From positions 13,867,166-13,931,165 of the forward strand of contig CM119269.1 of the NCBI GenBank assembly GCA_051294375.1: 64,000 bases of DNA. Direction: 5' to 3'. The translations under genes and the position numbers were made by a program. Shown piece by piece: positions 5,279-47,933 of this stretch (the stretch's first letter is position 1; each line of letters begins with the position of its first letter). This DNA is from Paraspadella gotoi (taxonomy: Eukaryota; Animalia; Chaetognatha). The notes beneath the pieces were generated by a model. The model had not been told where the DNA came from, did not search any database, and saw only the letters and a list, made by a program, of their open reading frames with translations.

Positions 5279-5996
5279 TGTCGCAGCGGCAAAATCAATC
5301 TTGCCTAGAGGAAGAACGTTAACGAGCAATCGGGATAGTTTGCTTTGTGTGGAGCCTCCTCACTCGTCTCTTGCTTTATCCGCCTCCCTCTGCTCCTATC
5401 ATTCAAGCCTTTCATGTTGTCTATTCCGATCTGACACTACTCGTCGTTTATGTTTCCGTTAGTTTTTTTCAAATTTCATTCAATTACAGTTTTACTTTTC
5501 ATTAATTTCATCTTGCAACTTCGCATGTCAATTCATATTTACATTTGATTTCCCCAACTCTGCCTCAGGTAGATTGCTTCATCCAATTCATTCATTCCTT
5601 CATTTATTCATTTATTCATGTAAGTTTAGTAGTCTTAATTTCCTTTTAGCATTTCTACATATAATTAATTCAATTTATTACTATAATTGATTGATATATA
5701 TATGTAACCCAAACTGATATTCTATCACACTCTTTAATCAAAGACCCTAAATATATTCGCACTTCATATTTTCGAACTATAACAGAAATTCGTCACGTCT
5801 TGACGGGTCTCCTTATTTTCTCAGTCCCCAATTTCATCATAAATTTGGAATTAAGTTTTTAGATTTAAAGATTTTGTTAGGCGACCCTTTTCGGTTCTCT
5901 TGAACTTAATTTTAAACTTAATATATGAAATTGGTACAACCAATATAAAAATTATCCATTCAGTTAATAAAAGCTATCTTGCCCCTGACTTTGACA
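5279..5996 (+). repeat. 3' LTR (~720 bp; TGTC...GACA termini)
   Basis: Ends in TTTGACA at 5996, where similarity to the 5' copy stops; AATAAA at ~5966. The start is inferred only from a matching TGTC at 5279. Confidence 0.55.
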
Positions 5997-6264
5997 GCCT
6001 TTCTGTGTTTAGAGGCCTCCATTCACTCTTACAAAGAAATAAATAGCAGGGTTCCCTGAAAGCTTTCAAGAGGTTCCAAATAAATCCTCGAAAGTGACCT
6101 TTACACTCTTCCTCACCAGTTCCCGTTCTTCACTCCCAGAGTACCTGGCTGATCCCTGTCAATGAAAGGGAGTGCAGAAGTGAGTGTTTATTGAAAGATT
6201 TATTGAGGTGGTTCAAGGGACGTCTCAGCGAATGTTTCAATTGTCATGAGGAAAAACCACTCCC

Positions 6265-12151: not shown

Positions 12152-12656
12152 CTACGTGGGCAGGAACTTTGTCGACTGTTTATCTGTCGACTATTTTTGA
12201 CCAAAGAAGCATCTTTTTTCTGTATTTTAATGGAAAAAAAATCGCGTTTGTATAAGAACATAATAAATAGATACTAAAATACTAAAATTGACTTTTTACC
12301 CAACTCTGACCTCTCTCTCTCTTGCACCTTCATTCCTATCGTGTTAATGACAGAAGTTGTTGAGTTGTAAGGAAACTTTTTTTAATTCAATTTACATATT
12401 GTAACAGATTAGATTATCTCCCACAAAGAGAAATTCTTTTTTTAGGGATTTTATGTCAGTGAGACTTTAAATGAGATTTCATCATGAGCTTTACAACTGG
12501 AAGCATTTTCTTATATTAAAAGTTTGAACGATGATTGTTTATGTTAAACTTATTATCATGACCACGTGAGACGCCACGGCTGTCGTCGTCGTCGTCGTCG
12601 TCGTCGTCTATATTTCTTGTGGTCGTCGATTTCTGAAAGATGGAAGAAGGACGATA

Positions 12657-12696
<40 letters not shown>

Positions 12697-12917: not shown

Positions 12918-13600
12918 AACGACGACGTAAGAAGAAAATAAAAGCGACGATGTAGCGTGAAAATCTTGGGACCGTGAGGGAGTGAGGCCGTGACAAACGA
13001 CGCCCGTGAGTTTTCATGACTCTGCGCGCGTGAAGACTGACGAGGATGAAGTGGGTGAACGAATTGTGTGAACCGATCGTGAAATGAGGGGAGGAGGGCT
13101 GAGGACTGTGAGGAGTGAGGCGAAAGGAAGAAGTGAAAATGTGAGGGGGAAAAGGACAAAGGAAAAAGATGAGAGGTAAAAGAAAAAGAAACCAATTCAT
13201 GTGACAATACTTGTGAACTGTGAATCGCTTGTTAAAGAGTTGAAAAGTTTAGTGATACGGTATTAGTGGTTCTATATTTGTAGATTTAAATCATATATAT
13301 GAAAATCGTTATACTACGAAAAATTTTTTATGTTTGTATAGTTTTTAAATCTGAATATAACTGATGTTCAAAAAAGATGACATTTGAAAAAGATGAACAA
13401 AAAGATGACAGACGAAAAAGATGACAGATGTAAAAGATGATAGACTAAAACTAAAGCCCAAGGTTGTCTTTCTCATAAATAAATTAAATAAATCGATTTA
13501 AATAAAATGATAGGCACTTTTTCGTCTAGTTGAACTTTGTTTCGCAGTTTTAAAGAGTTTTAAACTCGTTTAAAATATTCGTCATTTATACTAAAAAATT

Positions 13601-13858
13601 AAAAATGAGCGATTGGTAAGAATCAGGAACGAGGAACCTCTGATGACGTTTCGCAGGACCATAGCTTTCCCCCTACGAATCCGCCTCAGACGACACGACG
13701 CCCGGGCACAACGCTGTTGTTTCCAGCATGTGGAGCAAGTCGTGACAGCGGGTACCCTGTAGGTTGGAATATCAGTATTCCCCGCAGCGCCACCTGATCA
13801 ACCAAGATCGCCAGGCTCCCTAAGTTCTCAGGGATTACAGGTGATAACCAAACCCGCC
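13601..13858 (-). ncRNA. SRP/7SL-like (Alu-domain) structured RNA, likely Pol III
   Basis: The minus strand begins GGC-GGGU(UUGGUUAUC)ACC-UGUAAU-CCCUGAGAACUUAGGG-A-GCC, matching helix 2/3/4 plus the UGU(N)R motif of the SRP Alu domain, with complementary loops GUU/AAC. A long closing helix follows (GCGAU/AUCGC, UGGU/ACCA, GAUCAGG/CCUGAUU, GGGGAAU/GUUCCUC, CUGAU/AUCAG) and the sequence ends in UUUUU. It is a GC-rich island in AT-rich DNA. Confidence 0.65.
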
Positions 13859-14191
13859 TGATTAAAGACAGCGATAAGTGAATTAGTGATTCTAGTGAAT
13901 TTATTGATTCGGAATTAAAAATTAATATATCGATTGATTTTTTTAAGTATTTTTTTAAAGGTTTATGTTTTTCTTGATGTTACTTATATTTTATAATTTC
14001 ACTTTACCTTCTAATTTCATTAAGAACTCTGATTTATTTCAACTGAAACTGTTTGATTTTATTGTAAAGTGTAGTAAATTGGGTAAGGAAAGGTTTTTTT
14101 ATTTTAAATTAATTAATTCTAAAGAAAAGAAGAAACAAAAACGGAAACCACGAATCGGGGATTGAAATACGAAAACATTGACGGTCGTCAA

Positions 14192-15794: not shown

Positions 15795-16195
15795 AAGAGA
15801 GAGAGACAATCTCACGTGACTCTCTACAAATTTGGTAGTCCATCGAGAAGCCATCGAAAAAAGCCTTTGATGAGCCGCAGGCGTGAATCGTGAATCGCTG
15901 TGGTCACCGCCGAGCAAATCCTCGTGAGACGAAGACGAAACGTGAGCCGTGAATTCTTTTTACATGAGGAGGTGTCACTGGTGTCCCTCGTGTCACAAGA
16001 TCGAGTTGTGCGCTGTGAAAATCGCAGTGAAATTGAACAGCAGATAAGAAAGTGATATGATATCCGACCCAAAACTCGTTGAGCAATAAATCGGTTGAAG
16101 TTGCGAAAATTGTGAAATTGTGAAATTGTGAATTGTGAAAATTGTGAAATTGTGAAATTGTGAAATTGTGAAACTCGTCGAGTCTGAGGTGATTT

Positions 16196-18557
16196 GAGAT
16201 ATGTTCATCTCCCAAATCCTCCGCCCCGCGGGGCGGCTCTAGGGGCGGCCCAGGGGGCAGACTATTCCAGGGGAGCAGCAAAATGGTCCATTGAGGGGGC
16301 GCCCCTCTGGATTGCCTCAGGGGGCCGCCCAGGGGGTTCCCCTGGGCCAACATTTTGGGTCTATAAGGGGCGCCCCTAATGCTTAGCCCCGGGGCCAAAA
16401 AAGTCTGCCCTGGGGTAACCCTTGGGGAGCAAAAACTGCTCCCCCAGGGGCGAGTTAAAGAGAGAGCAAAGTTTAGATGAGAAAATATACTTCTGACTAT
16501 GTTATTATATCTTGAGAATATTTCTCCCTGTCTGTTACTCTCTCTTTCTCTCTCCCTTTTTCTTTTTTTCTCTCTCTTTTTCTCTCTCTCTCTTTTTCTC
16601 ATCCACTCTTCTTTTTTTTTTCTCTCTCTCTTTTTTCTCTCTCTTATGATCTTTTTTTTCTCTCTCTCTTCAAGACTTGTTTTATGTAACTGAATTAAAT
16701 ATAAATATTTTTCAAATTATTGTTAACTCATTTATCCATATTTTATCTAAAAATTATAATATTTGTATTTTTTAACCAATTATTTATTTCAGTTAAAAGA
16801 TATAGAAACAAGTTTTAGGCAAACAATGTAGGACGTAGCCACAAAAATTTAGTGTAAAAAGCTAATCAGTCATTTGTCTTCTTTTTTTTGTTTTTTTTAT
16901 CTTTCTTTTTTAATTTTTTTTTCTTTCTTTTTGTTGGATGGACATACTGATAGACTGATAGAGAGACATAATTTCTAAAAAAATATTCATAATTTGATGT
17001 TTAAAAAGAAATTAAATAAATTACCAAACAAATAATGGGCAGTGACTGACAAGCCTACTTAGTGAATTATGGCGTCCCCCCAAAAAATAATAAAAACTAT
17101 TCATCAACATTAATCGAGTTCTACATCGTAAAATAAATTTTATTTTATTTAAGATTTGTAATTAATAATCGTCAGTTTGTAGATTGCTTAAGATGAACTC
17201 ACGTTGTTAAGTAGAGGCTGATAATTTGAGAGAGAGAGTGAGCAAAACTTTATATCTAGCTCAATCACATACTTTTTTACCACATACAAAATTTTATTCC
17301 AATCCATCTATTTAATCACGAATAATTTGGAGTTTATGCTAATATGGGATGGACTTAAAGACTGATATTAATTAATTAATCAATTAAATATTTTTAATTA
17401 ATTATTTTTTATAAGTTTATAAGAGAATAAGTCAACAAAACTGTTTTTCCTAAGTGAATTAAAAATTAAAACCATCCTACTCTTTATTCTATAAAATTAT
17501 TAAGATAAAATTTTGTGTGTTGGTAGAAAAATGAAAGTGAGTTTTAATGGACAAACAAAAGTTACTTTTACTTAAACTTTATTAAAAAAATTTTTGAACT
17601 CTTTTTTTCTCTTCTTTTTTTATTTCTATCGGATAAAATTGTTAATTAGCTAATTGTTAAGTTGATTGTTGACCAAATTAATTAATTTGACCAAATTATC
17701 AAGTTGTCCAAATTATCTAAGTTGACCAAATTATGCAAGTTGACCAAATTATGACTGTTGACTAAATTAAGCAAATAACCAATTTATACTAGTTGACCAA
17801 TTTATGCCAATTGACAAATCTATGAAATTGACCAAATTATGCAAGTTGACCAAATTATGCGAGTTGATTTAATTATGCAAATTGATTAAATTATGAAAGT
17901 TTTACCAATATGAAATTTTACCAAATATGAAAGTTTACAAATTATTAAAGTTTACCAAATTATAAAAGTTTTAGCCAATTATGAAGTTAACCAAATTAAG
18001 CAAGTTAACTAAATAAAAAAAAAATTACCAAATTTGAAAGTTTAACCAATTATAAAAGTTTACAAAATTTTAAAAAGTTGATTAAATATATCAGTTGACC
18101 AATTTATGTCAGTTGACCAATTATGTCAATTGACTAAATTATGCAAGGTGACCAAATTATGCAAGTTGGTATTGGTGCAGCTATTGGTTCATTGATTGAT
18201 TAATTGAAGTAAAAAATATTATTTATTTTATATTTTATTGTAATGAAAGATGAAAATAGAAAATAGAGAAAGAGAGAGAGAGGGAGAGAGAAAGAGAGAG
18301 TAGAGGGAGAGAGAGAGAGGAGGAGAGGAGCCATTCCAGGGGCAGGAAAATTCTCCCTGGGGGTAGCCCCAGGGGGCAAGGGTTTTTCTAGCGGCCAGGG
18401 GATTCCCCTGGGTGGCCCTTGGGGCTCCAAAAAAGAGGCTACAGGGGGCCGCCCTAAGCGGTAAGGATTTGCTTGCCCCTCGGGCCGCCCCGCGGAGACC
18501 CCGCGGGCCGCCCCCGCACCGCCCCGGAGGGAAGCGATTCTGGAAGGATGACATCTT
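16196..18557. mobile_element. Non-autonomous long-TIR (foldback/MULE- or hAT-like) DNA element, ~2.36 kb
   Basis: Flanked by the target duplication GGTGATTT (16188-16195 and 18558-18565); the empty site has one copy at 23342-23349. Imperfect GC-rich terminal inverted arms of ~250 bp (GAGAT.TG.TCATC... / ...GATGACATCTT) continue into CT/GA tracts. The interior is AT-rich and non-coding. Confidence 0.75.
17660..18170. repeat. ~18-bp minisatellite (AAGTTGACCAAATTATGC) inside the TIR element
   Basis: Many degenerate tandem copies are directly visible. Confidence 0.9.
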
Positions 18558-21500
18558 GGTGATTTTGAAAAATCGAGGATCGAAATGAATCGATTCCAAA
18601 AAAAGACGAAGACGAATCGAGAATGAGATTCGTTGATTTCGGACCGTGACGTCATTCTTTTCGTCTCGTCGTCGTCGTCGTCGTCGTCGGTCGTCGGGAT
18701 CTTTCACTCGCAGCTTGTCCACGTTCTCATCGTCGTGATCTTTGTCGTCGTCGTCGTCGTCGTGTCGTCATCGGCCATTGATCGCGACACGTTCCAATTA
18801 TCTCGAGATTCGAAATCGAAGAAAAAAAACAACAAAGGAATAAACAATCGGAGAGGAAAATAAACAAACGGGATTCATCGGTTAATATGATTGTTATTTA
18901 ATAGATGTGATTGATGATGATTTTGGTAAATGGATTATAATTCATGCGGCTACTTTAATCATTGTTTTTTGTTTATTTTTTATAAATACTTAGTAAGTTC
19001 CCTGTTTTCATCTGGTCATTTTTCCTAATTTTTTTTGCCGTTCACTTTTGGGTGTGTGGTCGACTGTATTCATCGTGGTAACTCTAGTCAGCCATTGTAA
19101 AAGCCAAGTTTAGTACTTTCGTTCATTTTTCTGTCCTCTATCTTCACTTTGTCAGCCTTCGGTCTGGAATGCAGGCGACCTCTCGCCAAATCCAAAATTC
19201 GCGACTCTAGTCACTTGGAATTTGAGCCCCAAACTAGTTGCCTCTGGTCGGCGGAGGTGGAGAGACGAGAGAGAGAGAGAAGAAGAGAGAGAGAGGAGAG
19301 AGAGAGAGAGAGGAGAGAGGAAGGAGAGAGAGAGAGAGAGATGACCCCTCGGATGGAACGGATTCCAAGACGAGGTTAATTCCTTATCAATACCCATTGT
19401 TTTTTTTTTCCCTAAATTCGAGAAAATTTTTTTTTCGTTGGGTTTGGCGCGACGGTGAAGGTGGGTAAGTGGGATGGTGGTTGGGGAGGTGATAGTTTTT
19501 TTGGGGGTGAACGGAGTTAGGTGAGGGAAGGTAAGGCGGAAAGTATGAAAGGTAAGGGGCGTGTAAAAAAAAGGCGGGAGAAGATTAATCGCTTGGGGAA
19601 GGAAATTGCGGAGTTTAAATTAGTTGGGACAAGGTCGCTTGAATATAAACTAAACAGTAATAATTTACTAATTAAACATTTTGTGCCGAATTAAACAATT
19701 TAAGTTGCTAAGACCGAACGGGTACAGACGGACGGAAGGAACGCGCACGGGGATGGGACTAGAGGGCAAGGGAGTAAATGAGGAAGGGGAGTAGAGGTGA
19801 TGAAAAGGGGGAACGTGGGGGAAATGGAGAGGTTGAGTTGGGGGAGAGGGAGTGTGAGGGAGAATGGAGGGAGCGGGAAATGGAAAGAGAAAAGGCAGGG
19901 GGGGCGGAGGAAGAAAAAGGGGGAATAAGTGGGGAGAGTGGGGTGGTGGAGGAAGCGCCCGGGGGGAGAAGTCGCTGAAAGTGGGGGCGCCGCGGCGGTT
20001 GGGGAGGGCGTGCAGCGTTCCTGGCCGGACGGGGGCGGGGGGCGGCTTCGCCCCCCGCCCGGCGTGGCCCTTGGCTCCCCCGCCACCCCCGCACCGCCCC
20101 CCCCCCCCTCTGCGTCGCCCCCCGCCGGCCCCCTGGCGTAGCACCCCCCGCGCGCCCCCCCCCCCCCCCCATCCTGCCCCGCCCGGAGGAGAAGAGATGA
20201 GGCCGCCCCGCCCCGAGGGCCGCCTCCCCCCCCCCCCCCTCCCCCCCCCGACGGGTCATCGCCGCCCCCCCGCCCGCCCCCCCCCCCCCCCCCCCACCCC
20301 TCATGATCCCGAACCTCAGGCCCCCGCCCCCCCTCCCTCTCCCGTGCCGTCCCGAGCTCGCCCCCCACCCCCCACCTCCGCCCCCCCCCCCCCCCCCCCC
20401 CCGACCCGCCCCCCCCCCCCCCCCGCACACACCCCCCCCCCCCCCCCCCCCCCTCCCCCAACCACCCCAAACCCACCCCCCCCCGCCCCCCCCCCCCCCC
20501 CCCCCCCCCCGCCCCCCCGCGCCCACCCCCCCCCCCCCCCGCCCCTCAACAACACAACCGGCCCCCAGCTACAAACAAGCGAATAATAGAATTGAATGAA
20601 AGAAGGCAATTTGAAAACACCACCCACCCACCCCCCCCGCCCGGCGGCGTGTGTGTAGGGTAGGGGAGGTATGGGCCGGAAATGTGGGACCGGGGTGCCA
20701 CTTGAGGAACTGGGGGTGGGGTGGCCTCTTGGTCTGAAGAGCAAGGGGAATTAGTTACGGGGAGTAGGTTGGAGTATAAAACGCGTGTGTGGATTGTTGG
20801 TGGGTTTGTGAACTAAGGGTAGGCTGTGGTAACGACACTTCCCGCGATGGAGAAAATGGGTGCGCCCACACCCCCCCCCGGGCCCCGCCACCGCACCTTC
20901 GGGCTGTGCGGCCCCGGCTGCGAAACCACCCACCGACCCTCGCCCGGGGCCGCCGCATGAGCCACCCGGCGGCCCTCCTCCGCCCCCTCCCGCGCCCCGC
21001 TGCCCGGCCCCGCCCGCCCGCTCGACCAGGCCGCTCACCCCCCCCCCCCCACCCCCGCCACCGCCCCCGCCGAACCACAGCGAACGACACGGATGGCCGC
21101 TAACCAACACAGCCGACAACGGACACGACTTCCACAAGACACCGCACGTGTAACGCACACACCGACCTGCACCACGCACCCACTCACAGCCTGCCGCACC
21201 GGTCAGCGACTCCACCGGGCGCGACCGCCACACACGCTCCCCCCCCGGCTCTCGCGCGGCGCACCGCCACCCCGCCCGACGCCGCACACACGCGACTTCT
21301 TCGCGCCTCGGTGCTCTCCTATCTTCTCCTTTCTTTCGGAACGGCGAGGTTCCTTTCTCTTCTTTTCTCGCACACCTCGGAAAAATCTTTGTTTTATGTC
21401 CCCCGCACTTCTCTATCTCTCTTTATCATCGACTCTGTTCTCTTTGTCACCTGACTCACTCCTCTCGCTTGCTTCGTCGTCGGACGTTGTTTGTTGTTGG

Positions 21501-21674: not shown

Positions 21675-23447
21675 GAGTAAGAGAGAGCAGAGGATCGCGC
21701 CTGGTACAATTAAGCAATGTGAAGTCTATCGAGAGAATTTAAAATATGTCAGATTTGAGTTAAAGAATTCGCCTGAAACACAGAACTAAGAGAGGCATAG
21801 GGTGCTTGCCATCTGGGCGTGAGAGCAAGAGAGAGAGATGAGAGAGAGAGGAGAGAGGAGATGAGGAGAGAGAGAGAGAGATGAGAGAGAGAAGAGATGA
21901 GAGAGAGAGAGAAGAGAAAGAAAAATTTTCTGGAATCTCTCAAACTGTTAATCTGTTTTGTTTCAAAAAATCTTCCTTACATTTTTTCGCGTCAGTTATA
22001 AATACTGCCCTTTGTTTCACGCTGAGTATTATTAAGAACGCTTTTTATCGTTCTACATAGAATCCTTTGCATAGAATCTTCTAGGATGTGACCCTGTAAA
22101 AACTAAATCTTTATACTCTGGAGATCGCGGAGCTAAACTTCTAGCTGTTGAAATATACTACGGCGCAGTCTTATAAAAAGGTAAAAATTAATTAATGTGA
22201 CAATTGATTTGATTTTCGGAGCATTTGATGAGTTTATCATCGTATTAAAAAAGGCGAGGTAGAGGATCTTCTATTTTATGCTTTCTCATACAAAGGGGCG
22301 GGTGGGGCGGGGGGGGACACGCGAGGTCATACTTTATGCTTCGCCTCCAACGACGAATTCCGACCGCCACCGCCGTTCCACGATTCACCGATCTCACGCG
22401 CAGCAATCAAGCTGCGTCACATTTCTCACAACACACGTGATCAATTTTTTACAATTCCGCGTCTTCACTTTGACATGCAACGGACTCGTCCCATGTTGAC
22501 TCATCTCTCTCTCTCCTCTCTCTCTCTCTCTCCTCCTCGTCTCTTTCCCTCTCTCTCTCTCTCTCTGCTCTCTCTCTATTTTTGTTAATTGTCAGGGTCC
22601 GGTATGTTACGAGTTCTTCCTTTCCTAGCTCTCGGTTGCGACGCTCTCACCTTCGGGGAATTCACTCACATCGTACTCACTCCACCCGGAACTCGACTCA
22701 CTTCTCACTCCTTCAAATTTTTTTTTTTCGTCGCTGTGAGCCGTAGCGGGCGAAAAAAATATCAATAAAATTAACAGACACGTCCACTTTTTGATAAGAA
22801 GTCGTAAAACCACACACCCACCACACACTCACCCCACACACTCCATCAACCTTGTGTAGTGCTACCTAGAGTTTCTGTCTATTTCCAGAAAGACACGCTT
22901 AAGCTGACTCTGCTCTTCAAATATTCACAGAATATGATAAGCGGGTAATTTTATATTTAAAAAGTTGATTATCAAATATTGAGAGAGAGACAATCTCACG
23001 TGACTCTCTACAAATTTGGTAGTCCATCGAGAAGCCATCGAAAAAAGCCTTTGATGAGCCGCAGGCGTGAATCGTGAATCGCTGTGGTCACCGCCGAGCA
23101 AACTCCTCGTGAGACGAAGACGAAACCGTGAGCCGTGAATTCTTTTTACATGAGGAGGTGTCACTGGTGTCCCTCGTGTCACAAGATCAGAGTTGTGCGC
23201 TGTGAAAATCGCAGTGAAATGTGAACAGCAGATAACGATAACGAAAGTGATATGAGGTCCGACCCAAAACTCGTTGAGCAATAATCGGTTGAAGTTGCGA
23301 AAATTGTGAAATTGTGAAATTGTGAAACTCGTCGAGTCTGAGGTGATTTTGAAAAATCGAGGATCGAAATGAATCGATTCCAAAAAAAGACGAAGACGAA
23401 ATCGAGAATTGAGATTCGTTGATTTCGGGACCGTGACGTCATTCTTT

Positions 23448-23501
<54 letters not shown>

Positions 23502-23835
23502 GGATCTTCACTCGCAGCCTTGTCCACGTTCTCATCGTCGTGATCTTTGTTAGGGTTATCGTCGGGGTCGTCGTCGTCGTCGACGCAATCTTCACTAGCA
23601 GCCTAGTCCATGTTATCATTGTAGTGATCTTTGTCATCGTTGTTGTCTTTGTCATCATCATCCTCGTCGGGATCTTCATGAGCAGCCTTGTCCATGTTAT
23701 CATCTTAGTGATCTTTGACGTTGTCGTCATCTTCGTCATCGTCGTTGTCGTCGTCGTCGGGATCTTCACTCGTAGCCTTGTCCACGTTCTCATCGTCGTG
23801 ATCTTTGTCGTCGTCGTCGTCGTCGTCGTCGTCAT
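23448..23835. repeat. Compound (GTC)n-based minisatellite, 4 units of ~84-90 bp
   Basis: Core GATCTTCACTCGCAGCCTTGTCCACGTTCTCATCGTCGTGATCTTTG at ~23502, ~23588, ~23671 and ~23761, separated by GTC/ATC triplet runs. Confidence 0.85.
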
Positions 23836-24356
23836 CGGCCATTGATCGCGACACGTTCCAATTATCTCGAAATTCGGAAATCGAAGAAAAAAACAACAAA
23901 GGAATTAAACAATCGGAGAGAGAAAAATAAACAAACGAGGATATTCATCGGTTAATATTTTTTGATTGATTATTTAATAGATTGATTGATTGATTGATTT
24001 ATGGTAAATGGGATTATAATTCATGCGGCTACTTTAATCATTGTTTTTGTTTATTTTTTATAAATACTTAGGTAAGTTTCCCTTTTTCATCCTGGTCAAT
24101 TTTTCCTAATTTTTTTTGCCTCAGTTTTGTCACTTTTGGTTGTCCTGTGTCGATCTGTATTTCATCGTGTAACTCTAGTCAGCCATTAAAAGCCAAGTTT
24201 AATACTTTCCTTTCATTTTTCTGTCATCTATCTTTCACTTTGTCAGCCTTCGTCTCGGAAATGCCACGGCGAGCTCTTCGCACAATCCAAAATCTCGCGA
24301 CTCTAGTCACTTGGAATTTGACCCCAAATAGTTGCCCTCTGGTCGCGGAGGGAGAG

Positions 24357-24442
<86 letters not shown>

Positions 24443-24969
24443 GAATGACCCCTCGGATGGAACGGATTCCAAGACGAGGTTAATTCCTGTATCAATACCA
24501 GATATTTTTTTTCCCTAAATTCGAGAAACTTTTTTTTTCGGTTGGGTTTTGGCGGCGATGGTGAAGTGGCGGGCATAGCAGTGGGAGATGTGGCTTGGGG
24601 AGTGATAGTTTATTGGGAGGTGAACGGAAGTTAGGGGTGAGGGAAAGGTAAGGCGGAAAGTATGAAAGGTAAGGGGCGTGTAAGAAAAAAGGCGGGGAGA
24701 AGATTAATCGCTTGGGGAGAGAAATTGCGATTTAAATTAGTTGGGACCAAGGTCGCTTCAATATAAACTAAACAGTAATAAATTTACTAATTAAACAATT
24801 TTGTCCGAATTAAACAAATTTAAGTTGCTAAGACCGAACGGGTACAGACGGACGGAAGGAAGGAAGGAACGACCGGCGGCCGCAAAAAGGACAACGGAAG
24901 ATTCCCGACCGAGTGTACGACCCGACCGAACGATACGTGCGAGGTCAGGACTCACGGGGCGACGCAAAG

Positions 24970-25633: not shown

Positions 25634-25668
<35 letters not shown>

Positions 25669-26169
25669 AAATTTCTGGAATCTCTCAAAACTGTTAAATC
25701 TGTTTTGTTTCAAAAAATCTTCTTCATTTTTTCGCGTCCAGTTATAAATAGCTGCTTTTGTTTCACGCTGAGTATTATTAAGAACCTTTTTATCGTTCTA
25801 TCATAGAATTTTGTAGAATTCTGGATGTTGACTGTAAAACTAATTTTATACTCTGAGATCGTAAACTCTACATTTGATATACTAGGTCTTTAGAAAAGTA
25901 AAAATTAAATTACATGTGAAATTGATTTGATTTGGCATTTTATGTTTATCTCGTATTAAAAAAGGGAGGATAGAGGATTATCTATTTCTTTCCATACAAA
26001 CGGAGGTTCCATTTATCTTCGCCTCCACGAGCGATTCCACGAGTCCGTTCAAGGATTCACGGATTCACGGAAGAATCAAGCTGCGTCACATTTTCTCACA
26101 ACACACGTGATCAATTTTTTACACATTCGCGTCTTCCCCTTTGAACATCACGGATTCGGTCCAGTTGAC

Positions 26170-26301
<132 letters not shown>

Positions 26302-28101
26302 TATTGTCAGGGTCGATATTTTACGAGTTTCTTCCTTCCTACTTCGGTCGACGCTCTCACCTCGGGGGGAATTCACTCACATCGTCTCACTCACCCGAAC
26401 TCGACTCACTTTCTCACTCCTTCAATTTTTTTTTCGTCGCTGTGAGGCCGAGGGGGCGAAAAAAAATCAATAAATTACAGACACCAGTTTTGATATAGAA
26501 GTCGTAAAAGCGAAGTCAATTTATGAATAGAAATAAGTATTTATCAACCTTGTGTAGTCTACTAGAAGTTCTGTCTATTTCCAGAAGACAACGCTAAGCT
26601 GACTCTCCTCTTCAAATATTCACAAATATGATAAGGGTAATTGATATTTAAAAGTGAATTATCAAAATATTATTACTTTAATGAAATTAAAGAAAACATG
26701 TAATTTTGCTACTTTAAAAGTAAAAAAAAATACTTAAAAATTTCACAAAAAGCTTATTCGATTATTTTTTTATTTTTTTTTTATTCAGAACTAGCTAAAG
26801 TTGTGCCAGCCTAAATATTTATAAATTGTGCTCAGAATAGTGAAATTTTACTGTTTTTATTTAAGTAACAACTGGAACATAAAGCATGCACTTTTAAAAA
26901 AACATTTTTTTGCAGAGATCGAGATTGAAATAGGGCAACAACAATACAGATCGTTTCTTTGATTTAGTCTCTTTTTGCAAATGAAATGAACCCTAAAGAC
27001 TAAAGAGTCCATTTCGGGGTCGGAATTATTTTAGAATAATAAATATTGAAATTGCTTCTAAAAATCGACGTCAACTTTACAATATTGAACATTGAAAGAA
27101 AACACTTGAATAAATATGTTAGGTTTAAGACATTTATAACAAAAATCCAATCAAATTATTAACTTATATTCAATTTATTTTATTTGCATTAAATAAATTC
27201 ACAGTTGGGCTTTGAACAGAACTAGTAATAAAAAAATATTAGTAACTTTTTTATTTAACTATTACTACCAATTATGTTGTGACATTAACTTTATGAAAAA
27301 ACTATTGTGAGCGCGAAAAGTTGAAAAAGTCACGTTTTTTTTAAGTTACCCCTCTTTCCAGCATTATATTTCAAATAGATTTATAAATATTGTTTTTACT
27401 AATTTTCGCGCTAAGATTTTTATAAATTTTGTGATTTAACAAAATAAGATAGAAAAAAATTTAAAAATATAATTCTGACATAATGAAGAAAAAATGTCAT
27501 TAATTAAGAGCCAGGCAATGTTGAATTAGTACACTGAATAAAAAAAGACTTGTTCCAGTTTGTTTGATGGTGAGTGGTAAGCAAGATTGTCACGTGGTAA
27601 GCAAGATTGTCATGTTATCAGTTGGAATCATCACAGAAAAATATTGCATGAATAAATAGCGACGCACGCTTTTCATCTCCTCGGCAAGGATTAAATGCGA
27701 AAGATGAAATGCCTAATTCGCAATATAAACATTTTTCAAATTTAAATAAATGTCGTCCATTTTATTCCGAAAAGTTAAAATGTTTGAACAATACGAGGAC
27801 AAGTTTGCGACATTATCTTTTCGTCTTATCATCTCTGGTGCGTGAATGATGCAACCAGTTGACTGGCAGGAGCCGCAGGACAACTCTCTTTGACTTTGAA
27901 GTTGCTGCGTGAAGAAACTCCATAAGACTCTTGGTTGTCGGTCGGTCGGTTTGTTAGTCCATCTATCTGTCCGTAATTTTAAATTATGGGATTACGTGAA
28001 AAGTGAATTAGACGCAACACTATGGAATTGCCGTTCTTAGTTTTTTAGTTCGCTCCGTAGAATCATTTTAGTAGTGAAAAAGCTGCAACAAGAAACTTTC
28101 G

Positions 28102-28637: not shown

Positions 28638-29868
28638 CTTTCAACATTCTCCATCCCCCACCTATCGTCCAATCGAAGTAAATCTTCTTTTGCCGCAAGA
28701 GAGCGTTACGTTTGACGACTTCGGCCGAGTTTCCTTTCCTCAACTCGGCGGCGTCGAATCTGTAGACGTACTTGAAGGTGGCCATCGAGGCGCCGACGGT
28801 CAGCGTCGTCCCTTCAGTCTTTTCCCAGAAGAATCCGTACATGTTCCACCTGAGGAAAGACAAAAATAGAAAAGACTGTTTGGCTCGGTGGGTTCCCATT
28901 TTTTCTGTCTCAACTATTTACCAGTAACGTAACAGGTAATTCTACCGTCAATCATTTTTCTACTTTATCAACCCTTCCCCGCCTACCCTGAACCAATATA
29001 GCGGTCCTTGCTCACCTGGCAATAGTCAAATCTTTTTGTCAACCTATTTGTAGCAATTTTTTTCTTGTTCAATCTTCTTTCAACCTACCCTGTTCTAAAG
29101 TATCGCAGCTTAAACGGCATCACTTTAACAATAGGTTTTATACCTATCCTACCCAGCTTTAACGGCATGTAACCAGATCATTTTTTCCCACCCACCCTAT
29201 ACCAATCGCGACTTAAACAGTATTGCTCGGTAAAACACTTTCCAATTTACCCAGTACTGGTATCACAGTTTGATGAGAATTTTTAGGTTAATCTCATTCC
29301 TGCCAACATTGTACCATTATCGCAACTTGAAACGCATGGGTCTGTTAATTTCATTCCCGCGCACCCTGTACCTGTATCGCAGCTTGAAATGAAGCTTTTC
29401 GTCAATGTTTTTCCCGTCGACCCAATACCAGTAACACGGTTTTACTGCCCGCACTCTACCGGAATCGCAGCTTAAAAGGTCTGTCTTTGACCAACTCGTT
29501 CCGGCCCACCCTGTACCACTATCACGGTTGTTCTGCTCACCCTGTACCGGTATCTCAGCTCGAAAGGCACTTTATAATCATACTGGTTTTCGACAACCCT
29601 GTACCGGTATCTCAGCTTGAACGGCTCCGGGAATCCGTCGTAATTCTTGAGAAACGCGATGGTCTCCTTCCTCGGGATCTCGTCGGCGTCGCTGACCAGG
29701 AAGAGATCGTCCGGACGCGTTCCCTTCAAAGCCTTCGCCGCCTCCACGCCCATGAAAGTCCTCATGTAGTCGACGGCGATCCACCCGTTGTCTCGTCCAC
29801 GGAAAGCGGTGGGGGGGAAGGGTGGTTGTTGGCAGTCTCTCTCTCTCTCTCTCTCTCCTCTCTCTCTT

Positions 29869-29923
<55 letters not shown>

Positions 29924-32440
29924 CGAGCAGTTAAAAACCGACCTTATTTGACCCTAATCTCCGTCTCATTCGCCCCGATCCCACTCCGCTCCCCATCCCC
30001 CAAAAACCTGCAGCACGTAGAGGATCTTTCCGACGAAGGGTTGGAGGAATCCTCCCCTCCTCCTCATCTCCGTGAGGAATCTCAGAGGCTTCGAGTCTCC
30101 GTAGTTGGAGAAGTTGGACTCGGCGAGGACGAAGACATCGACGACCTCGTTGAGCTCGCGGAGGCGAATCTCGGTCAGGTCGAACTCGTGGTTGACGTTC
30201 ACCGCGTAGATGATCCGACGAGGACGCAGCCGACGCCGCAGGAGAACGGGGCGCGGAGCAGCGGCGAAGTGGACGGCGGCGGGGACGCCGCAGTCGAGGC
30301 CGAAGAAGCCGGGGAGGCAGTTGCAGACGCGTGTAGGGATTAGGGGGTCTGAGAAAGTGGAGAGTGAAGATGAGTAAGAGAAAAATGGTAATATTACCAT
30401 CTAGGATAAAAGTATATCACATTTTTATTAGAGGACATCTACTCAAAAACTTGTTTGATTTGAAAAAAATTAGAATATTTCCCAATCTAATATACTAAAT
30501 ATTTTATTTTATTATTTTACTATATATTTTTACATGTTTTGTATATTTTTTATTGAATAAATAAAATTTTCAACAATTATGTGATATACTTTTTTCCTAA
30601 ATAGTAATGGAAATATAAATGGTGATGGAAATGGAAAGTGTAATCGAAATGGAAATTGTAATGGAAATGGTATTGGAAATGGAAATGGAAATGGAAAGAG
30701 AAAAGGGAAAAGTAAGGGAAAGTATAGGATTAAAAGTGAAGGAAAAGGAAAAGGGTAAAAAGGGTAAAAAGGGTTAAAAGGGTTGATTGACGAGAGGAAA
30801 AATATATTTTGTAGGTTTTATTTTTAAATTTTTGTTTAATTTTAACTTATGCATGAGACATTTCTTCAACTATTAAATTAAAATAAAGTTAAGTGTCGAA
30901 AAACTTTATAAACCAACCTGTAGAATTAAGCTCCGTTTGGTTCTCTGCCCTTACTCTCGCGGGATCAAGCTGTAATTCTTCGGTGGAGATTCGAGACTCC
31001 GTCCTGCTTTTTTCAGTCCCTGCCGCCGCTGCTCCTGCCGCCACAGCTCCTGTCGCTCCCACCGCTTCGTTCAATTCTTTTCCCGCCGCCCTCGCCGCTT
31101 CCGTCACCCCCGCCGCCGCCTCCTGCACCCCGATCACCCCCGTAACCCCCGCCGCCCGTCTTAGCCTCTCCACCACCGGCTCCGCCTTCACGACTCCGTC
31201 CACGAAACACGTGACGTTCTCCTCGAAGTCTTTAAAGTAGACGGCGTCGTCGTCGCGAAGGAAGAAGGCGCCGAAAGGGGCGTGGCCCGGCGTTGGCGGC
31301 GACGAAGACGGCGTGGCGGAGAAGGCGGCGTCATCGGCGGCGGAAAGGGCGGAAGCGACGCCGGTAGCGGAGAGGACGGGTTCCGGAGGCGGCGCGGAAT
31401 CGGAAGCGGCGTCGTTCGATTCCGGCGACGAGAGAATCGGCGAATCCGGTCGCTCCTCTTCCTCTCCTTCTGTTGATGGTGTATTGTGTCGTCTTCGTCG
31501 TCGTCGTCGTCGCTCTCGTGGTTAGCTGGAAAGTGGGGGGGCAATAGAAGGAAGGAAGGAAGGAAGGAAGGAAGGAAGGAAGGAAGGAAGGAAGGAAGGA
31601 GGAAGGAAGGGAAGGAAGAGAAGGAAGGAAGAAAAGGAGGAAAGAAGAAGAAAGAAAGAAAGGAAAAATGGAGAAGATCGAGACTTTTACCCCAGATCTT
31701 TTCGCTGACCAAAATATAACGGACCTAAATTGACCTTTTCTTTTACTTCTTCAATCACCTTTTCTCTGACCATTTTCCTCACTCTTCTAATCATTTACTG
31801 ACCATTTCTTTAACCTTACCCACTGACCCTTGTCCCTGACAAAATTGACCATTTTTCACCGACTTTTTTCACTGACCTGCCTCTCTGACCATTTCACTGA
31901 CCTCTCTACTGACTTTTCTCACTGACCATTCCTACTGACCATTCCATTAAAATTTCCCACTGACTTTTTCTTATGACTTTTCTCAATAACCGTTTCACTG
32001 ACCTTTCCACTGACCTTTGACCTCTCGGTATCCCATGTGCGACGACATGACGTAGATGAGCATCGCGATTTGGACGCCGATGAAGAAAAGAATCCCGAGG
32101 GTGGAGAGTCGTCTCGTGTGCCATGACTGTAATCGGAAACAATCATTAAATCAATCATTTATTTAATCAATCAATCAATCAATCATTTAATCATTTAATG
32201 AATCGTTCAATAAATCATTCACCTGATCATTAAATCAGTTATTAAATCAATCTTTCAATTAATTAAACAATCAATCAATCTTTCAATCTTCCAACATTCA
32301 ATTAATCATTTCGAGCAATCAATCATCTATCATTCAAACGTTAATTCAATCATTCGGTTCATTGCTTGATTAATCACTAATTTTATCTCTCGTGAGCGTT
32401 TCACCTTGGCTGCGGTCATGTTCCAAGGCTTTAGCCTCAT
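28102..32440 (-). CDS. MGAT3: Beta-1,4-mannosyl-glycoprotein 4-beta-N-acetylglucosaminyltransferase (GnT-III, GT17), 7 coding exons
   Basis: Exons (minus strand): 32440-32405 (MRLKPWNMTAAK); 32126-32015 (TM anchor LGILFFIGVQIAMLIYVM); ~31526-30918 (low-complexity stem, needs one frame shift or an alternative acceptor); 30348-30008 (CNCLPGFFGLDCGVP..PRRIIYAVNVNHEFDL..VDVFVLAESNFS); ~29812-29605 (GWIAVDYMR..PDDLFLVSDADEIP); 28849-28662 (RWNMYGFFW..WTIG); 28517-28102 (AGWHCSWCFSPVGIRTKLTSAMNGDFPRWGD..stop). These are typical GnT-III motifs. GT-AG boundaries are in phase except for the two noted local defects. Confidence 0.92.
28850..29630 (-). repeat. Degenerate ~57-bp tandem array filling an MGAT3 intron, derived from the exon/donor junction
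   Basis: CCCTGTACCGGTATCTCAGCT at ~29598 (the true junction) and ~29540, with increasingly diverged copies at ~29453, 29363, 29310, 29250, 29195 and 29088. Confidence 0.8.
31700..32021 (-). repeat. Short-period GGTCAG(T) repeat in an MGAT3 intron
   Basis: More than a dozen (A)CTGAC(C) motifs on the plus strand at ~12-30 nt spacing, starting at the AAAG|GTCAGT donor. Confidence 0.75.
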
Positions 32441-32943
32441 TCGTCTTCAGCGGAGTTCGTTCCAATTTCGACGCGAGGATTTTGATCTACAAGTATTAGT
32501 AATATTAAGTATAAATGTTTTATCGCGTAATTAATCAAGTTCCTTTAAAACGAAACGTTTACATACAAATAAAAAAGGATTTTTTTGTTATTACTGATGA
32601 CTACGATGTATTTCTTGAATTGATATCCGACATATCTGTGATACATAAAAGTCTACGAATAGTTAAGCTGAATGACTCTTCCTCTTAAGAACACATAAAT
32701 GTATAATATGGATTTACAAAATTTGCGGGGAAATACGTGACTTGAAAGCAAATTATAAAACTAGTTGAGGAAATAGTTCATTTTAACTAAAACCCGATTT
32801 AATAAGACAAAACAACGGTTTTGATATTGGATAGCGAACCTTTGCCCCCCCCCTTAAGAAAAACAAAACATTATATTCTCAGTGTAAATTTTGAAATATC
32901 TTTTTATTTCATGATGAAACTTATTTCACTGTAATATTTTTAC

Positions 32944-33023
32944 CTGCCGTCGGCAAAATGTACTTTGCGGCTTGCACTTCTTCTTAATTTGATCAATTTG
33001 CACTCAGTTGACTAGTATACCAC
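32944..33023 (-). other. Putative 5' UTR exon of MGAT3
   Basis: Bounded by a strong acceptor (ttttttcttttcag, ending 33024) and a donor (CAG|gtaaaa, 32943). The next acceptor (cttgtag) is at 32487, upstream of the ATG. Confidence 0.5.
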
Positions 33024-33126
33024 CTGAAAAGAAAAAAAATATTATTTACGTCGTTTCTGCGTTGTTTTTTTTTCACGCTGTCAAGTCATATATGGGCATT
33101 ATTACTATATTGGTCGAATTAAAACG

Positions 33127-35275
33127 ATGTATTCACCAATGTCCATAAAAAGAGATGGAATCTTTTGGATGGAAGAACGCATCACGACGAGTAATCACTA
33201 CAGCAGCCACTTCAGCTGCCTCAGGGAAGACCGCAGCGTCAGCGGGGGACGCGGCGACGGCCGCGGGACAGAAGATGCTACTCGCGTGCGATGAAGACTT
33301 GCACGTGAGGGTAGTGAGAAAACAAAAGGTGCAGCAGATGAAAAGAAAAAGACGTTAGATGGCGCTTTTTGATATTTTCTAATTTTCAACAAAAAAAATT
33401 CCAATCGATTCATTCGGAAAAAAATAGAAAAAAAAATCTAAGTAAAGAATAATAACATACAATGAATATTTTTGTTTTTGTTTGTTTTTTTTTGTTTTTA
33501 TAATTCGAGATTGTTTTGTAAGAAAAACTTTCAACGTTTAATTATGATAAACATGTTATAAATTTGTTCTAACAAATTTTGAAAATTTCACATTCCACCC
33601 TTAAAATATTAAATAAATAAATGAAAATAAATGAATTCTTTAAGACCATTTTATCGCCTTTTTAACTATAGCTTGCAGTTTTAAACTGACATTTAAAATT
33701 TATATCTCTTCAAGTTGAAGTTCAACGCAAAAGGAATAATTCTTCTATGCTCCTTTGTTAAATAAGAGCGTTTTTTCAGAATTTGTGTGACACCTATCGA
33801 CACGATTCTGGAACCTACTGAATGAGTCTTCTGTTTTTAAATGATTATGTCTCAAAATGCGTTAATGATTCATTGTCGAATATTCTTAATTTTTTGATGA
33901 AATCTTCAGTTAAAAAAAAGTTTTAAGAAATTTAAATCACTTTATAGATATCGCTCGTAAAATTTTAAATTTGACATAAATTAATAAGTCTGAGAATAAA
34001 ATGACTAAAATGGTTGAGAAACCGGATTTTGATATCTCCGTCAACACCGCGGTTAAAGTCTATCAAGTAAATCCGGATACATAATTAACCTGCATATAAA
34101 ATAATGAAGACCTGTTATAAATATAGCTCTTTGACAGGGATTTGGAAAGCTACCACAGTTGAACAGCGTGAAGGCCTCGCAATACGACATCAGACCATCC
34201 GTCAGATGCAACTGGGGTTCGTCAGAGTGATTATCGTAGATCTTTTAAGATGTTTAATAATCGATAGATATCTACTGATTGCGTATTTGATCGATTGATT
34301 GATTAGATGAGTGATTGATCCATGTCTTTATTATCCTAAAATTCAATAGGCTTACTAGCAATGAAAAAGCGTCAATGGGCCTGCGAAGAAAGATACAAAA
34401 CGATTAACATTGGCAACTTGTCCACTTACAGGCAAATAATACAAATGAAAAAAAAATCACTTACTGAAATAATACAAACTTAATAATAATTTACTCGATG
34501 TTGAATAAACTTATTAAGCTCTCCGACCCCTGCCGGTCAAATTCACGGTTCTCCCCCCCTTTTTCGCAGGGAGTCCTACTGCCCCGCGACGTCCCTCTCC
34601 CCCGCCCCGTGCTTTCCCTTCGAGCCTTACGTCATGGAATGTCCCATCATCGACGAGAGTCGATACGAGAAGAAGCCGCCGAGACCGCCTTGCGCGCCCA
34701 AAGGTAGAGAGATGGGATGTGGGGACAGAGATTGACCCTATGGGCTTGTTAGAGTGGTCACTGGTCAAGGTTAGGGTCTCGAGGTTAGGGTGTTAAGGTT
34801 GCCGACGTTTAGAGAAGTCAGGTCGTTAAGATTTACGCTTTGAGAGATTTAAGGGTGTCAAGATTTAGGCTTTTCACGTGGTCAGCGAGTTAAAGTTGAC
34901 GAAGTGTGCGAGTTTAGAGTTTTACAGTTGACTATGCGAGCATGGTCAGAGTTCAGTGTGTTAAGGTTAACGCAAGGTTGAGCTATGTTCAGTGGGTTAA
35001 AGATCGAGACTAGGAGTTAGGCCAGGGGGAATAGTAATTGATTAAGTGGTTTCGAATCGTTTTAACGACTCCACGAAACCCATCCCCCCCACGACAACCC
35101 CCCTTAAATACAGAGTTGATCCCCGAGCGTCGCCCCGACACCCAACTCGACATCCTCCTGCTCTCGAAGGACATCACGGATCCATGCGATCCGCCCGGCG
35201 CCTTCAGGATCGGCAGGACGATCGACAGCGTCAGGACGTATCAGGACCGGCAGAGCGCGCCGCAGCCGAATCTCG

Positions 35276-35280
<5 letters not shown>
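33127..35280 (+). CDS. Uncharacterised ~180-aa Pro/Cys-containing protein, 4 exons
   Basis: GC-rich blocks with phase-compatible GT-AG junctions: 33127-33285 (or 33155-33304), 34138-34226 (GFGKLPQLNSVKASQYDIRPSVRCNWGSS), 34570-34703 (ESYCPATSLSPAPCFPFEPYVMECPIIDESRYEKKPPRPPCAPK), 35114-35280 (ELIPERRPDTQLDILLLSKDITDPCDPPGAFRIGR..stop). No family recognised; the first-exon frame is ambiguous. Confidence 0.7.
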
Positions 35281-35306
<26 letters not shown>

Positions 35307-35769
35307 AGTTGGGGGAGAATGTGGGGAGAAAGCAGACTGTGGAGGAGAGACGAGGCAGTGGCGTTGCTAAAGACTGTGGAATATCGGCGGTGGTTTGTGG
35401 ACTGTTGATATATTTTCGTGAAATTTTTGGAAAAGGAACGATTGCGTCAAACTGGAAATGCTTCGTCAATAATCGGAGAATCACTCGGGTTTTTTTTTTC
35501 AAAATCTGGATTTACAACGAAGAAGGATTTAGATTCTAAATTTAGAATTCGATTTTTAAAACGATCCAAATCGAATGTATTTTTTTTTGTATGTGTAAAT
35601 AAATTAGTAGTAATATTAACAAAATTGTTTTAGATCATTAAGCATCTTCATTTTTTAGATTATTTATCTTTGTCGTCTTTGTGGTAATCGTTATGGTTCT
35701 TTGACTAATCTGTTGTTCTCGTTCGTTTGACCAAAAAGAAAGGCCTACTTTCTACTCTCCAAAGAAATT

Positions 35770-35889
<120 letters not shown>

Positions 35890-36838
35890 TCTCTGCCAAG
35901 AATCACGGTCAAATGCGCAAAATCATTTGGGCTGAGAACTTTTGACTGATGAAAGTGTCTCCTTTTTTCCCCTTATCTTATCATCGGATATATTTGCCAT
36001 AGACTTGTTCGTTAGTTTTGTTAGTTCAGTTGGTTAAACTTTTTTTGTTCATTCTCATCGAGTTCCTCACCAGTCTTTCTCTGTTCAGCTTCATCCCTTT
36101 TTTTCCTCCTTTCTTTTTTCCTTCCTCTCATATTCTCTTTCTTCCACTTCCTCCTTCTCTCTCTCTTAATTTTCCTCTCTACTACCTCCTCTTCCTCCCT
36201 CCCCTCTCTCTGTTTTTTTTAATCATCTCCTCGATCCTTTTCCTACTTTTCCTCGTTCCTCCTCCCCTTCTTCCTCTCCCCTTCTCCTCCTCCTCCTCCT
36301 CCTCCTCCTCTTCCTCCTCTCTACTGGCGCCGCTTTTGACGTTCGTCGATTTTCTCTTTATTGTTTTTCTTATGAGAAAAGATGATCTTTGGGATCGAGC
36401 GGCGTCGCGCTTCGAAACCGGCGTCGCGCTTCGAAACCGGCGTCGTTGTCTCCATCCGGCGCCGCGTTCTTCGTTTGGCGCCGAGATTCAGAGACGGCGC
36501 CATTCTCACGATCTCCCTTTTTTTTACATTTNNNNNNNNNNNNNNNNNNNNNNNNNNNNNNNNNNNNNNNNNNNNNNNNNNNNNNNNNNNNNNNNNNNNN
36601 NNNNNNNNNNNNNNNNNNNNNNNNNNNNNNNNNNNNNNNNNNNNNNNNNNNNNNNNNNNNNNNNNNNNNNNNNNNNNNNNNNNNNNNNNNNNNNNNNNNN
36701 NNNNNNNNNNNNNNNNNNNNNNNNNNCCCCAAGTGGGCGTGTCTTTCCACGCCCAGGCGTCGCTGTCGCCCCTCGGGAATTCTGTCTCCAAACTCATCAA
36801 GAAGGAAAAGAGAGAAGAGGACGTCTCGTCTCGTCTCT

Positions 36839-38252: not shown

Positions 38253-39391
38253 CTCACTCGGCGGCGTCGTCTGTAGACGTACTGAAGGTGGCCATCCGAG
38301 GCGGCCGACGGTTCAGCGTGTCCCTTCAGTCTTTTCCAGAAGAATCCGTACATGTTCCACCTGAGAAAAGACAAAAATAGAAAAGACTGTTTGGCTCGGT
38401 GGGTTCCATTTTTTTCTGATCTTCAACTATTTACCAGTAACGTAACAGGTAATTCTACCGTCATCATTTTTCCTACTTTATCAACCCTTCCCCCCTTACC
38501 CTGAACCAAATTATAGCGGTGCTCCTTGACTCACTGGGCAAATAGTCAAATCTTTTTGTCAACCTATTTGTTAGCAATTTTTTTCTTGTTCAATCTTCTA
38601 TTCAACCTACCCTGTTTTAAAGTATCGCAGCTTAGAACGGCATTTCACTTTAACAATAGGTTTTATACCTATCCTACCAGCTAACGGCATGTAACCATAT
38701 ATTTTTCCCACCCACCCTATACCAATCGCGACTTAAACAGTATTGCTCGGTAAAACACTTTCAATTTACCCATATGGTATCACGTTTGATGAGAATTTTT
38801 AGGTTAATCTCATTCCTGCAACATCTGTACCATTATTCGCAACTTGAAACGCATGGGTCTGTTAATTTCATTCCCGCGCACCCTGTACCTGTATCCAGCT
38901 TGAATGAAGCTTTCCGTCAATGTTTTTTCGTCGACCCAATACCAGTAACACGGTTTTTACTGCCCCACTCTACGCGGAATCGCAGCTTAAGTCTGTCTTT
39001 GACCAACTGTTCCGGCCCACCTGTACCACATCACGTTGTTCTGCCTCACCTGTACCGGAATCTCAGCCGAAAGGCACTTTATAATCATACTGTTCTTCGA
39101 AACCCTTACCGGTATTCAGCTTGAACCGGCTCCGGGATCCGTCGTATTCTTTGAGAAAAACGCGATGGTCTCCTTCCCCCGCTCGGGATCTCGTCGGCGT
39201 CGCTGACCAGGAAGAGACTCGTCCGGACGCGTCCTTCATAAGCCTCTTCGCCGACCTCCCACGCCATGAAAGCTCATGTATTCGACGGCGATCCACCCGT
39301 TGTCTCGTCCACCGGTGGAGGGAAGGCGGTCTTTTGGGGGGGAAGGGCGTGGTGTGGCAGTCTCTCTCTCTCTCTTCTCTCCTCTCTCTCT

Positions 39392-39450
<59 letters not shown>

Positions 39451-45378: not shown

Positions 45379-45461
<83 letters not shown>

Positions 45462-46159
45462 TCTCTGCCAAGATCACGGGTTTCAAATGCGCAAAATCAT
45501 TTGCTGAGAACTTTGACTGATGATGAAAGTGTCTCACCTTTTTTCCCCTTTCTTATCATTTCGGATATATTTGCCATAGACTGTTCGTAGTTTTGTTTAG
45601 TTTCAGTTGGTTAAACTTTTTTTCATTTCATCGATTTCCTCACCAGTCTTTCCTGTTCAAGCTTCATCCTTTTTTCCTCGCCTTTCCTTTTTTCCTCTCT
45701 CATTCTTTCTCCACCTCCTGTCCTCTCTCTTAATTCCTCTCTACTACCTCCTCTTCCTCCCTTCCCCTCTCTCTGTTTTTTTTAATCATCTTCCCTCGAT
45801 CCTTTTCCTCATTTTCCTCGTTCCTCCTCCTTCTTCCTCTCCCTTCTCCTCCTTCCTCTCCGATCTGGCACTCTCCTCTTCCCTCTCTTACTTGCGTCGC
45901 GTTTTTGACGTTCGTTCGATTTTCTCTTTATTGTTTTATGAGAAAAGATGATCGGAATCGAGCGGCGTCGCGCTTCGAAACCGGCCGTCCGCGCTTCGGA
46001 AACCGGCGTCGTGTCTCCATCCGGACGCCGCCGTTCTTCGTTTGCGCGCGAGATCTCGATACGGCGCCATCTCCGATGCTCCCTTTTTGTTACATTCTTT
46101 TTTTTTATGTTGCCTTCATTTTTTCCCGCGACGGAATAGATTCTCTTTCCAAGCGTTTG

Positions 46160-46196
<37 letters not shown>

Positions 46197-47889: not shown

Positions 47890-47933
<44 letters not shown>

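Follow-up and report, generated by a model that had tools for sequence, protein, structure and literature searches.

A predicted 258-nt relative of SRP RNA with an SRP-type Alu domain and no recognisable SRP54 site in the chaetognath Paraspadella gotoi

The window that we analysed, a 64,000-nt stretch of the Paraspadella gotoi genome, carries on its minus strand (13601..13858) a predicted 258-nt Pol III-type RNA gene, called locus A here. Its sequence, its fold and its paralogues suggest that it is a real, selected and undescribed relative of SRP RNA, which would act like the Alu half of that RNA. The reading that we prefer, with a probability of about one half, is that the gene belongs to a low-copy family, likely derived from 7SL and transcribed by Pol III, whose RNAs are predicted to bind SRP9/14 and the ribosome, have no SRP54 site, and probably regulate translation beside a canonical 7SL gene. 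An earlier note on this DNA had offered two readings, an SRP9/14-type Pol III RNA whose S domain has been replaced, or a very divergent SRP RNA; this pair survives, but the detail of the central fold given there was wrong.

Positions in the RNA are given as r numbers, where r equals 13859 minus the window position, and papers are cited by PMC number. As the earlier note had described, the element is a GC-rich island on the minus strand, with its sequence and motifs in place and a GC content of 0.54 against 0.22 and 0.265 in the adjoining 200-nt flanks. The stretch is present in eight of the nine sequencing runs listed, which come from two studies; four of the eight may derive from the source organism, and none is listed as RNA, a fact with no bearing on expression. 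In run X5 of the second study the locus A sequence recurs over 13557–13864 without any difference, so it is not an assembly artefact. The whole RNA folds at −95.3 kcal/mol (z −2.10), a value equalled by 4 of 200 shuffles. The claim of a U5 end with neither poly-A nor target-site duplication also stands: r254–258 is the sole run of four or more U in the RNA, a T6 run lies directly behind it, and the two together (13593..13605, minus strand) resemble a Pol III terminator. The locus A element has no poly-A or simple-repeat tail, and among flank words of at least 6 nt no convincing target-site duplication was found, the one 6-nt AT-rich direct repeat overlapping the U run.

Two candidate promoter parts can be named. 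The site r64–73 (13786..13795, minus strand) resembles the B boxes of human and hagfish 7SL quoted in PMC7245038 and lies within a stretch common to locus A and its paralogue, locus B; one contig common to the paralogues covers 13765–13795. Both the likeness and the sharing favour descent from 7SL and an internal promoter. The 33 nt immediately upstream (13859..13891, minus strand) may form an external part, being ∼80% alike at a likely third locus, D. Contig ends in the second study (starts at 13607 in X7, at 13605, within the U run, in X8, at 13584 in X6 and at 13557 in X5, with the 5′ contig of X5 stopping at 13864) leave most of the flanks uncovered, where X1 and X4 continue. This pattern would fit a transcript, but it comes from one study whose DNA label is a guess, and GC bias could give such islands; it was not counted. 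Runs X7 and X9, from different studies, share a 990-nt contig at 13151–13186 with the same depth and loose ends, so the two may not be independent. None of the eight runs showed a spliced joint, though their contigs, mostly of unknown kind, leave room for splicing at an acceptor-like site.

Searches with Rfam returned no SRP or other credible ncRNA family, either at gathering score over the whole 64-kb window or on the element alone at E≤5 and E≤10, and the Metazoa_SRP match of an ordinary 7SL gene, which the earlier note had allowed for, did not appear. Rfam miRNA matches at 12577–12692 were rejected as a sub-threshold artefact, opposed GTC/GAC trinucleotide runs (12577–12696) forming a hairpin there. 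A coding role is unlikely, given the single-base insertions and deletions between the paralogues and the lack of any Pfam match in the four frames that overlap the element.

The window as a whole is repeat-rich animal DNA with 3655 N. Two of 149 frames match Pfam, both glycosyltransferase 17 (MGAT3-like) exons at ∼29.5–30.4 kb, in a scan that left out frames in 38300–58000 as duplicates. The MGAT3-like C-terminal exon is 54–73% like annelid, fish and Seison proteins (20 matches among 35 candidates). Three tandem MGAT3-like units occupy 28743–58175, of which 38253–48183 and 48211–58175 agree at 99.5% over 9968 columns and the first (28743–36530) is 88.6% alike; there are 25-N gaps at the borders and the exons of the second unit are frameshifted, and the units may be a real duplication or an assembly artefact. 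A degenerate tandem array with a 17–18/35-nt unit and ∼14 copies of the 35-mer lies at 17668–18168, and duplicated segments of 0.35–1.2 kb, 77–96% alike and without a Pfam match, pair 18658–19741 with 23721–24861, 15797–16132 with 22981–23326, 1–381 with 5616–6002, and 21884–22980 with 25634–26671.

The first 45 nt (r1–45; 13814..13858, minus strand) form an SRP-type Alu 5′ domain. Helix 2 (r1–3/43–45) encloses helix 3, the UGUNR U-turn motif in the form UGUAA (r20–24; 13835..13839) and helix 4, the loops of the two hairpins being complementary. A strict Alu descriptor matches r1–45, and does so anywhere in 8 of 3000 shuffles and at the 5′ end in none of 3000. The same descriptor gives six further matches elsewhere in the window, so it is unspecific by itself and needs outside support. 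Nor is the Alu domain on its own unusually stable (z −1.2, 21 of 200 shuffles), and imposing its helices on the overall fold costs 1.5 kcal/mol. The likeness to human 7SL (UGUAGU, then AGGC) quoted in the earlier note is one that we take to be right.

Outside support comes from the paralogues. The helix 4 pair U29–A38 of locus A is G–C in locus B. The loop–loop pairing r10–13/r33–36 (within 13823..13849, minus strand), GGUU/AACU in A and AGUC/GACU in B as read by hand from a difference table and a loose end, has undergone one two-sided and one one-sided change and kept 4/4 pairs, in a comparison of two loci only. UGUNR is retained at loci A, B and D, in the last two within loose ends. The motif between helices 3 and 4 is defined as an SRP feature in PMC4605306 and PMC2905702, and according to the latter the SRP small domain is marked by covarying loop pairing together with UGUNR. 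The Alu fold with complementary loops, first proposed from the sequence of locus A, is upheld by the descriptor match and by the covariation in paralogue B.

Paralogue contigs were placed in the eight runs at 80% likeness, a threshold at which less similar copies would be missed. The pair readings draw on difference tables, in which differences near contig ends do not appear, and on loose ends of 30 letters, and some were made by hand. Two loci, both of one organism, are fully informative, and it is on these, not on a deep alignment, that the covariation rests. Locus B is covered over r39–177 in several runs and its Alu domain through one contig and one loose end; it occurs in slight variants, which may be alleles. 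Locus D is likely a third locus. It is seen in a single contig (X2 record 14, 13848–13891, six other letters and two gaps), in which the upstream 33 nt and the first bases are ∼80% like A, and it has its own UGUAA and continues into a different Alu-type start; it could be the canonical 7SL gene.

Between A and B there is one substitution in r64–111 (48 nt) and none in r146–177 (32 nt), each stretch also having one deleted base, against eight in r112–145 and five in r46–63; to judge by these counts, the centre of the RNA is constrained. The compensatory changes between the two loci, in helix 4, in the loop–loop pairing and in the 13679–13650 hairpin described below, which contradict the lack of covariation that the earlier note had named as a possible refutation, indicate that the fold is under selection.

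These data also bear on a further explanation, which we regard as improbable: the element would have no function of its own and be either a 7SL-headed SINE of recent origin or a decaying retrocopy or pseudogene of 7SL. SINEs with a 7SL head have appeared on more than one occasion, their Alu fold being maintained through compensatory changes (PMC7245038), and copies less than 80% alike would have escaped detection here. Against this, the element has one copy in the 64-kb window and two or three loci among the contigs at 80% likeness. On the 981 nt used for placement, three runs that are possibly source DNA gave 7, 9 and 8 contigs, several of them short AT-rich flank matches. So few related contigs argue against a young high-copy SINE; the many decayed copies that the earlier note had named as a sign of one were not seen. 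A poly-A, simple-repeat or LINE-type tail and a convincing target-site duplication are likewise lacking, terminator runs follow the 3′ end, the upstream flank recurs at the likely third locus, and paired bases persist in a hairpin far from the Alu head.

Beyond the Alu domain the 5′ and 3′ parts of the RNA close on each other as helix 5. The 5′ strand lies at 13771..13813 (r46–66 firm, r74–88 in an extended model) and the 3′ strand at 13606..13644, both on the minus strand, the latter known from the fold and covered by no paralogue contig. The long 5′–3′ helix of the earlier note is borne out by r46–66/232–253, with three main stems at pair probabilities of 0.83–0.94. Depending on the model the helix measures 22–32 bp: for r68–112, a model that joins a short helix 5 to a small three-way domain (−93.5 kcal/mol) and two extended-helix models (−91.0 and −90.8) lie within 3 kcal/mol of each other. 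At its longest, in the extended model, helix 5 has ∼32 bp, about half the length that it has in human 7SL. It is likely too short to reach both ribosomal sites.

Two arms follow. Arm Y (r113–167; 13692..13746, minus strand), a long irregular hairpin of 55 nt at the place of helix 6, was drawn from the partition function and the paralogue changes. Its U114–U166 mismatch is G–U or A–U in two B variants; also in B, U131–G147 becomes C–G, C133–G145 is lost, G136–C142 is gained, and some pairs near r118–126 are broken, so that the comparison appears to give the arm moderate backing. Arm Z (r169–220; 13639..13690, minus strand), 52 nt long and at the place of helix 8, is unusually stable (z −3.83, 0 of 200 shuffles, for a region picked after folding). 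Of the 9 pairs of its inner stem, r180–188/201–209, 8 persist in B, where one change is two-sided (C182–G207 to U–A), three are one-sided and the outermost pair is broken. The loop is the least conserved part of the RNA between A and B, 12 and 10 nt long and unalignable. Arm Y followed by arm Z can be read, in this model, as the order of helices 6 and 8 in SRP RNA.

The central fold proposed in the earlier note does not agree with this. It costs ∼12 kcal/mol (−81.9 against −93.8), and two of its helices break in paralogue B: CGCUG/CAGCG loses one or two of five pairs, and CCUAC/GUAGG loses one of five (A99–U184, read by hand) and is in any case excluded by the r180–188/201–209 hairpin. Its GGGUAC/GUGCCC and UCCA/UGGA helices are invariant between A and B, and so neither supported nor broken.

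Helix 8, the SRP54 site, is called conserved in all SRP RNAs (PMC4605306). A strict helix-8 descriptor gave no match on either strand of the element, and no SRP54 motif is found in arm Z of A or B. On helix 8, then, the element by its sequence appears to fail the definition of the SRP RNA family. The absence of helix 8 claimed from the sequence of locus A therefore holds for the strict form, whereas the accompanying claim that a GNAR-capped helix 6 is absent was too strong. The tip of arm Y (13718..13725, minus strand), on which a weak and decayed helix-8-like pattern at r129–147 is also centred, may form a GNAR tetraloop: r136–139, which two pairs would close, reads GAAA in A but GAAG in B. 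This is not the minimum-energy form, since imposing the r134–141 tetraloop costs ∼7 kcal/mol (−88.4 against −95.3).

We therefore weighed a second explanation, in which the RNA is a true SRP RNA with a rebuilt S domain and a co-evolved SRP54. Arm Y would then be helix 6 and arm Z a degenerate helix 8 or, alternatively, arm Y would itself be a decayed helix 8, with G132–A144, Y131–K145, A130–C146 and a 1-nt insertion. The RNA has the full topology of an SRP RNA, from the Alu domain to the U5 end, and its two or three intact loci recall 7SL gene families; Schistosoma, for instance, has several SRP RNA candidates, one of them near canonical (PMC2770079). In chaetognaths the rRNA falls into two divergent classes, and ribosomal proteins have many paralogues (PMC2020476). 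Basidiomycete SRP RNAs, which show G-to-U/A changes beside the invariant A–C pair and a 1-nt insertion in the symmetric loop, also escaped standard searches (PMC4605306). A relaxed helix-8 pattern that retains the invariant A–C pair and allows the insertion matches the element once, at r129–147 and on the sense strand only, and the match is kept in B.

Several observations run the other way. The relaxed pattern was tuned to the element itself and, since 54 of 500 shuffles also contain it, carries no significance on its own; 4 of the 22 positions of r126–147 differ between A and B, and the tip in B is GAAG, not GNRA. The loop of arm Z is unconserved, though no other site of SRP RNAs is so strongly conserved. 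The short helix 5 has, by eye, no clear 5e motif, which consists of 4 bp around a 3-nt loop starting with A and includes two symmetric G–C pairs (PMC2905702): r84–87 with r216–222 could enclose a 3-nt loop beginning with A, without the symmetric G–C pairs. Fast-evolving flatworms, moreover, retain a near-canonical SRP RNA (PMC2770079). We consider a rebuilt SRP RNA possible, yet less likely than a translation regulator. Slightly more doubtful still is that the family is the sole SRP RNA of its lineage; it would then have abandoned both the helix-8 SRP54 site and one half of helix 5, and SRP54 would have co-evolved to bind a new RNA surface or to work without an RNA site.

A last explanation is that the RNA is some other diverged Pol III RNA, such as 7SK, telomerase RNA, RNase P or MRP, with an Alu-like 5′ end by mere resemblance. 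The length of ∼260 nt and the U-tract end would fit these classes, and locus A contains two GAUC words (r50–53 and r60–63) and an AACCUA word. The former resemble words of the 7SK 5′ stem, the latter could be a TTAGG template, and a GGAAAG word is reminiscent of RNase MRP. In B, however, both GAUC words and AACCUA are changed (r52, r53, r63 and r95–96) and GGAAAG is missing from the arm Z loop. Rfam gave no match at E≤10, and the Alu pseudoknot covaries, unlike a chance likeness. With these words not kept in B or their flanking motifs missing, 7SK, telomerase RNA, RNase P/MRP and U17-type RNAs were dropped, and we hold an origin in any such class to be very improbable.

The reading as a 7SL-derived translation regulator was chosen because, lacking an SRP54 site and having a short helix 5, such an RNA would be unable to link signal recognition with arrest. 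The intact Alu domain would bind SRP9/14, and with SRP9/14 would dock on ribosomes; the RNA would then act as a translation regulator and not as a scaffold for signal recognition. By its sequence the element combines a predicted SRP9/14-competent fold with the lack of an SRP54 site, as do RNAs of the BC200/scAlu type. Counting against this reading, the RNA retains two arms that match helices 6 and 8 in order and roughly in size, whereas known 7SL derivatives delete the S domain (PMC7245038).

As far as our searches reach, the RNA is new for invertebrates on either reading, as a regulator or as a rebuilt SRP RNA. If a canonical 7SL gene coexists with it, the family would be a selected branch of 7SL that arose independently outside mammals and has a structured core absent from BC200 and Alu RNAs. 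It would also be a candidate regulator of translation, in a phylum whose duplicated translation machinery is already known. If there is none, the most conserved RNA–protein contact of protein targeting would have been rebuilt in an animal, beyond the basidiomycete cases.

Searches of metagenomes, viral contigs and prokaryote genomes, collections poor in animal DNA, gave no homologue outside the source organism. Three motifs had no match in a metagenome scan; an Alu pattern had five there, none extending beyond short words and none with an Rfam match, apparently chance matches in bacterial DNA. Two scans of viral contigs and one of prokaryote genomes returned nothing. No published chaetognath SRP RNA or similar RNA was found in a literature search that took in few subscription papers. 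The text of the chaetognath genome paper PMC12460157 does not mention SRP or 7SL, and none of six SRP protein names occurs in three of its supplementary files.

Among known systems, metazoan SRP RNA (7SL) shares with this RNA Alu helices 2–4, UGUNR, the loop–loop pairing, a 5′–3′ helix 5, a B-box-like site, a U-tract end and two far arms. It differs in being ∼300 nt long against 258 and in having the helix-8 symmetric loop and conserved GNRA tip, neither of which is seen here; nor does any SRP model match at E≤10. BC200 and the scAlu/Alu RNAs of primates are 7SL-derived Pol III RNAs with an SRP9/14-binding Alu 5′ domain and no SRP54 function (PMC10498592), properties that are predicted from sequence for the chaetognath RNA. 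The BC200 gene exists in a single copy, has both internal and external promoter parts and arose by way of an Alu retroposon, and its RNA has A-rich and C-rich tails (PMC10498592); the present RNA, in contrast, lacks an A-rich tract, keeps both strands of helix 5, and has a structured and apparently constrained centre and an invertebrate host.

Basidiomycota provide a parallel for the altered S domain: standard covariance models miss their SRP RNAs owing to an altered helix 8, in which the G beside A–C can change and a 1-nt insertion occurs, and the C. neoformans SRP RNA has been shown to bind Srp19 and Srp54 (PMC4605306). These RNAs lack Alu helices 3 and 4 and keep helices 5, 6 and 8 with the 5e motif (PMC4605306), whereas in the chaetognath RNA it is helix 8 that could not be assigned, and the Alu domain is complete. 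Finally, hagfish SINE1-1_EBu and other 7SL-headed SINEs resemble the chaetognath RNA in having an Alu domain with compensatory changes and an unrecognisable S domain (PMC7245038). They exist in thousands of copies, with a LINE-derived tail and the S domain deleted (PMC7245038), whilst the chaetognath family is small, ends in a terminator where the SINEs have a tail, and has a centre that appears to be constrained.
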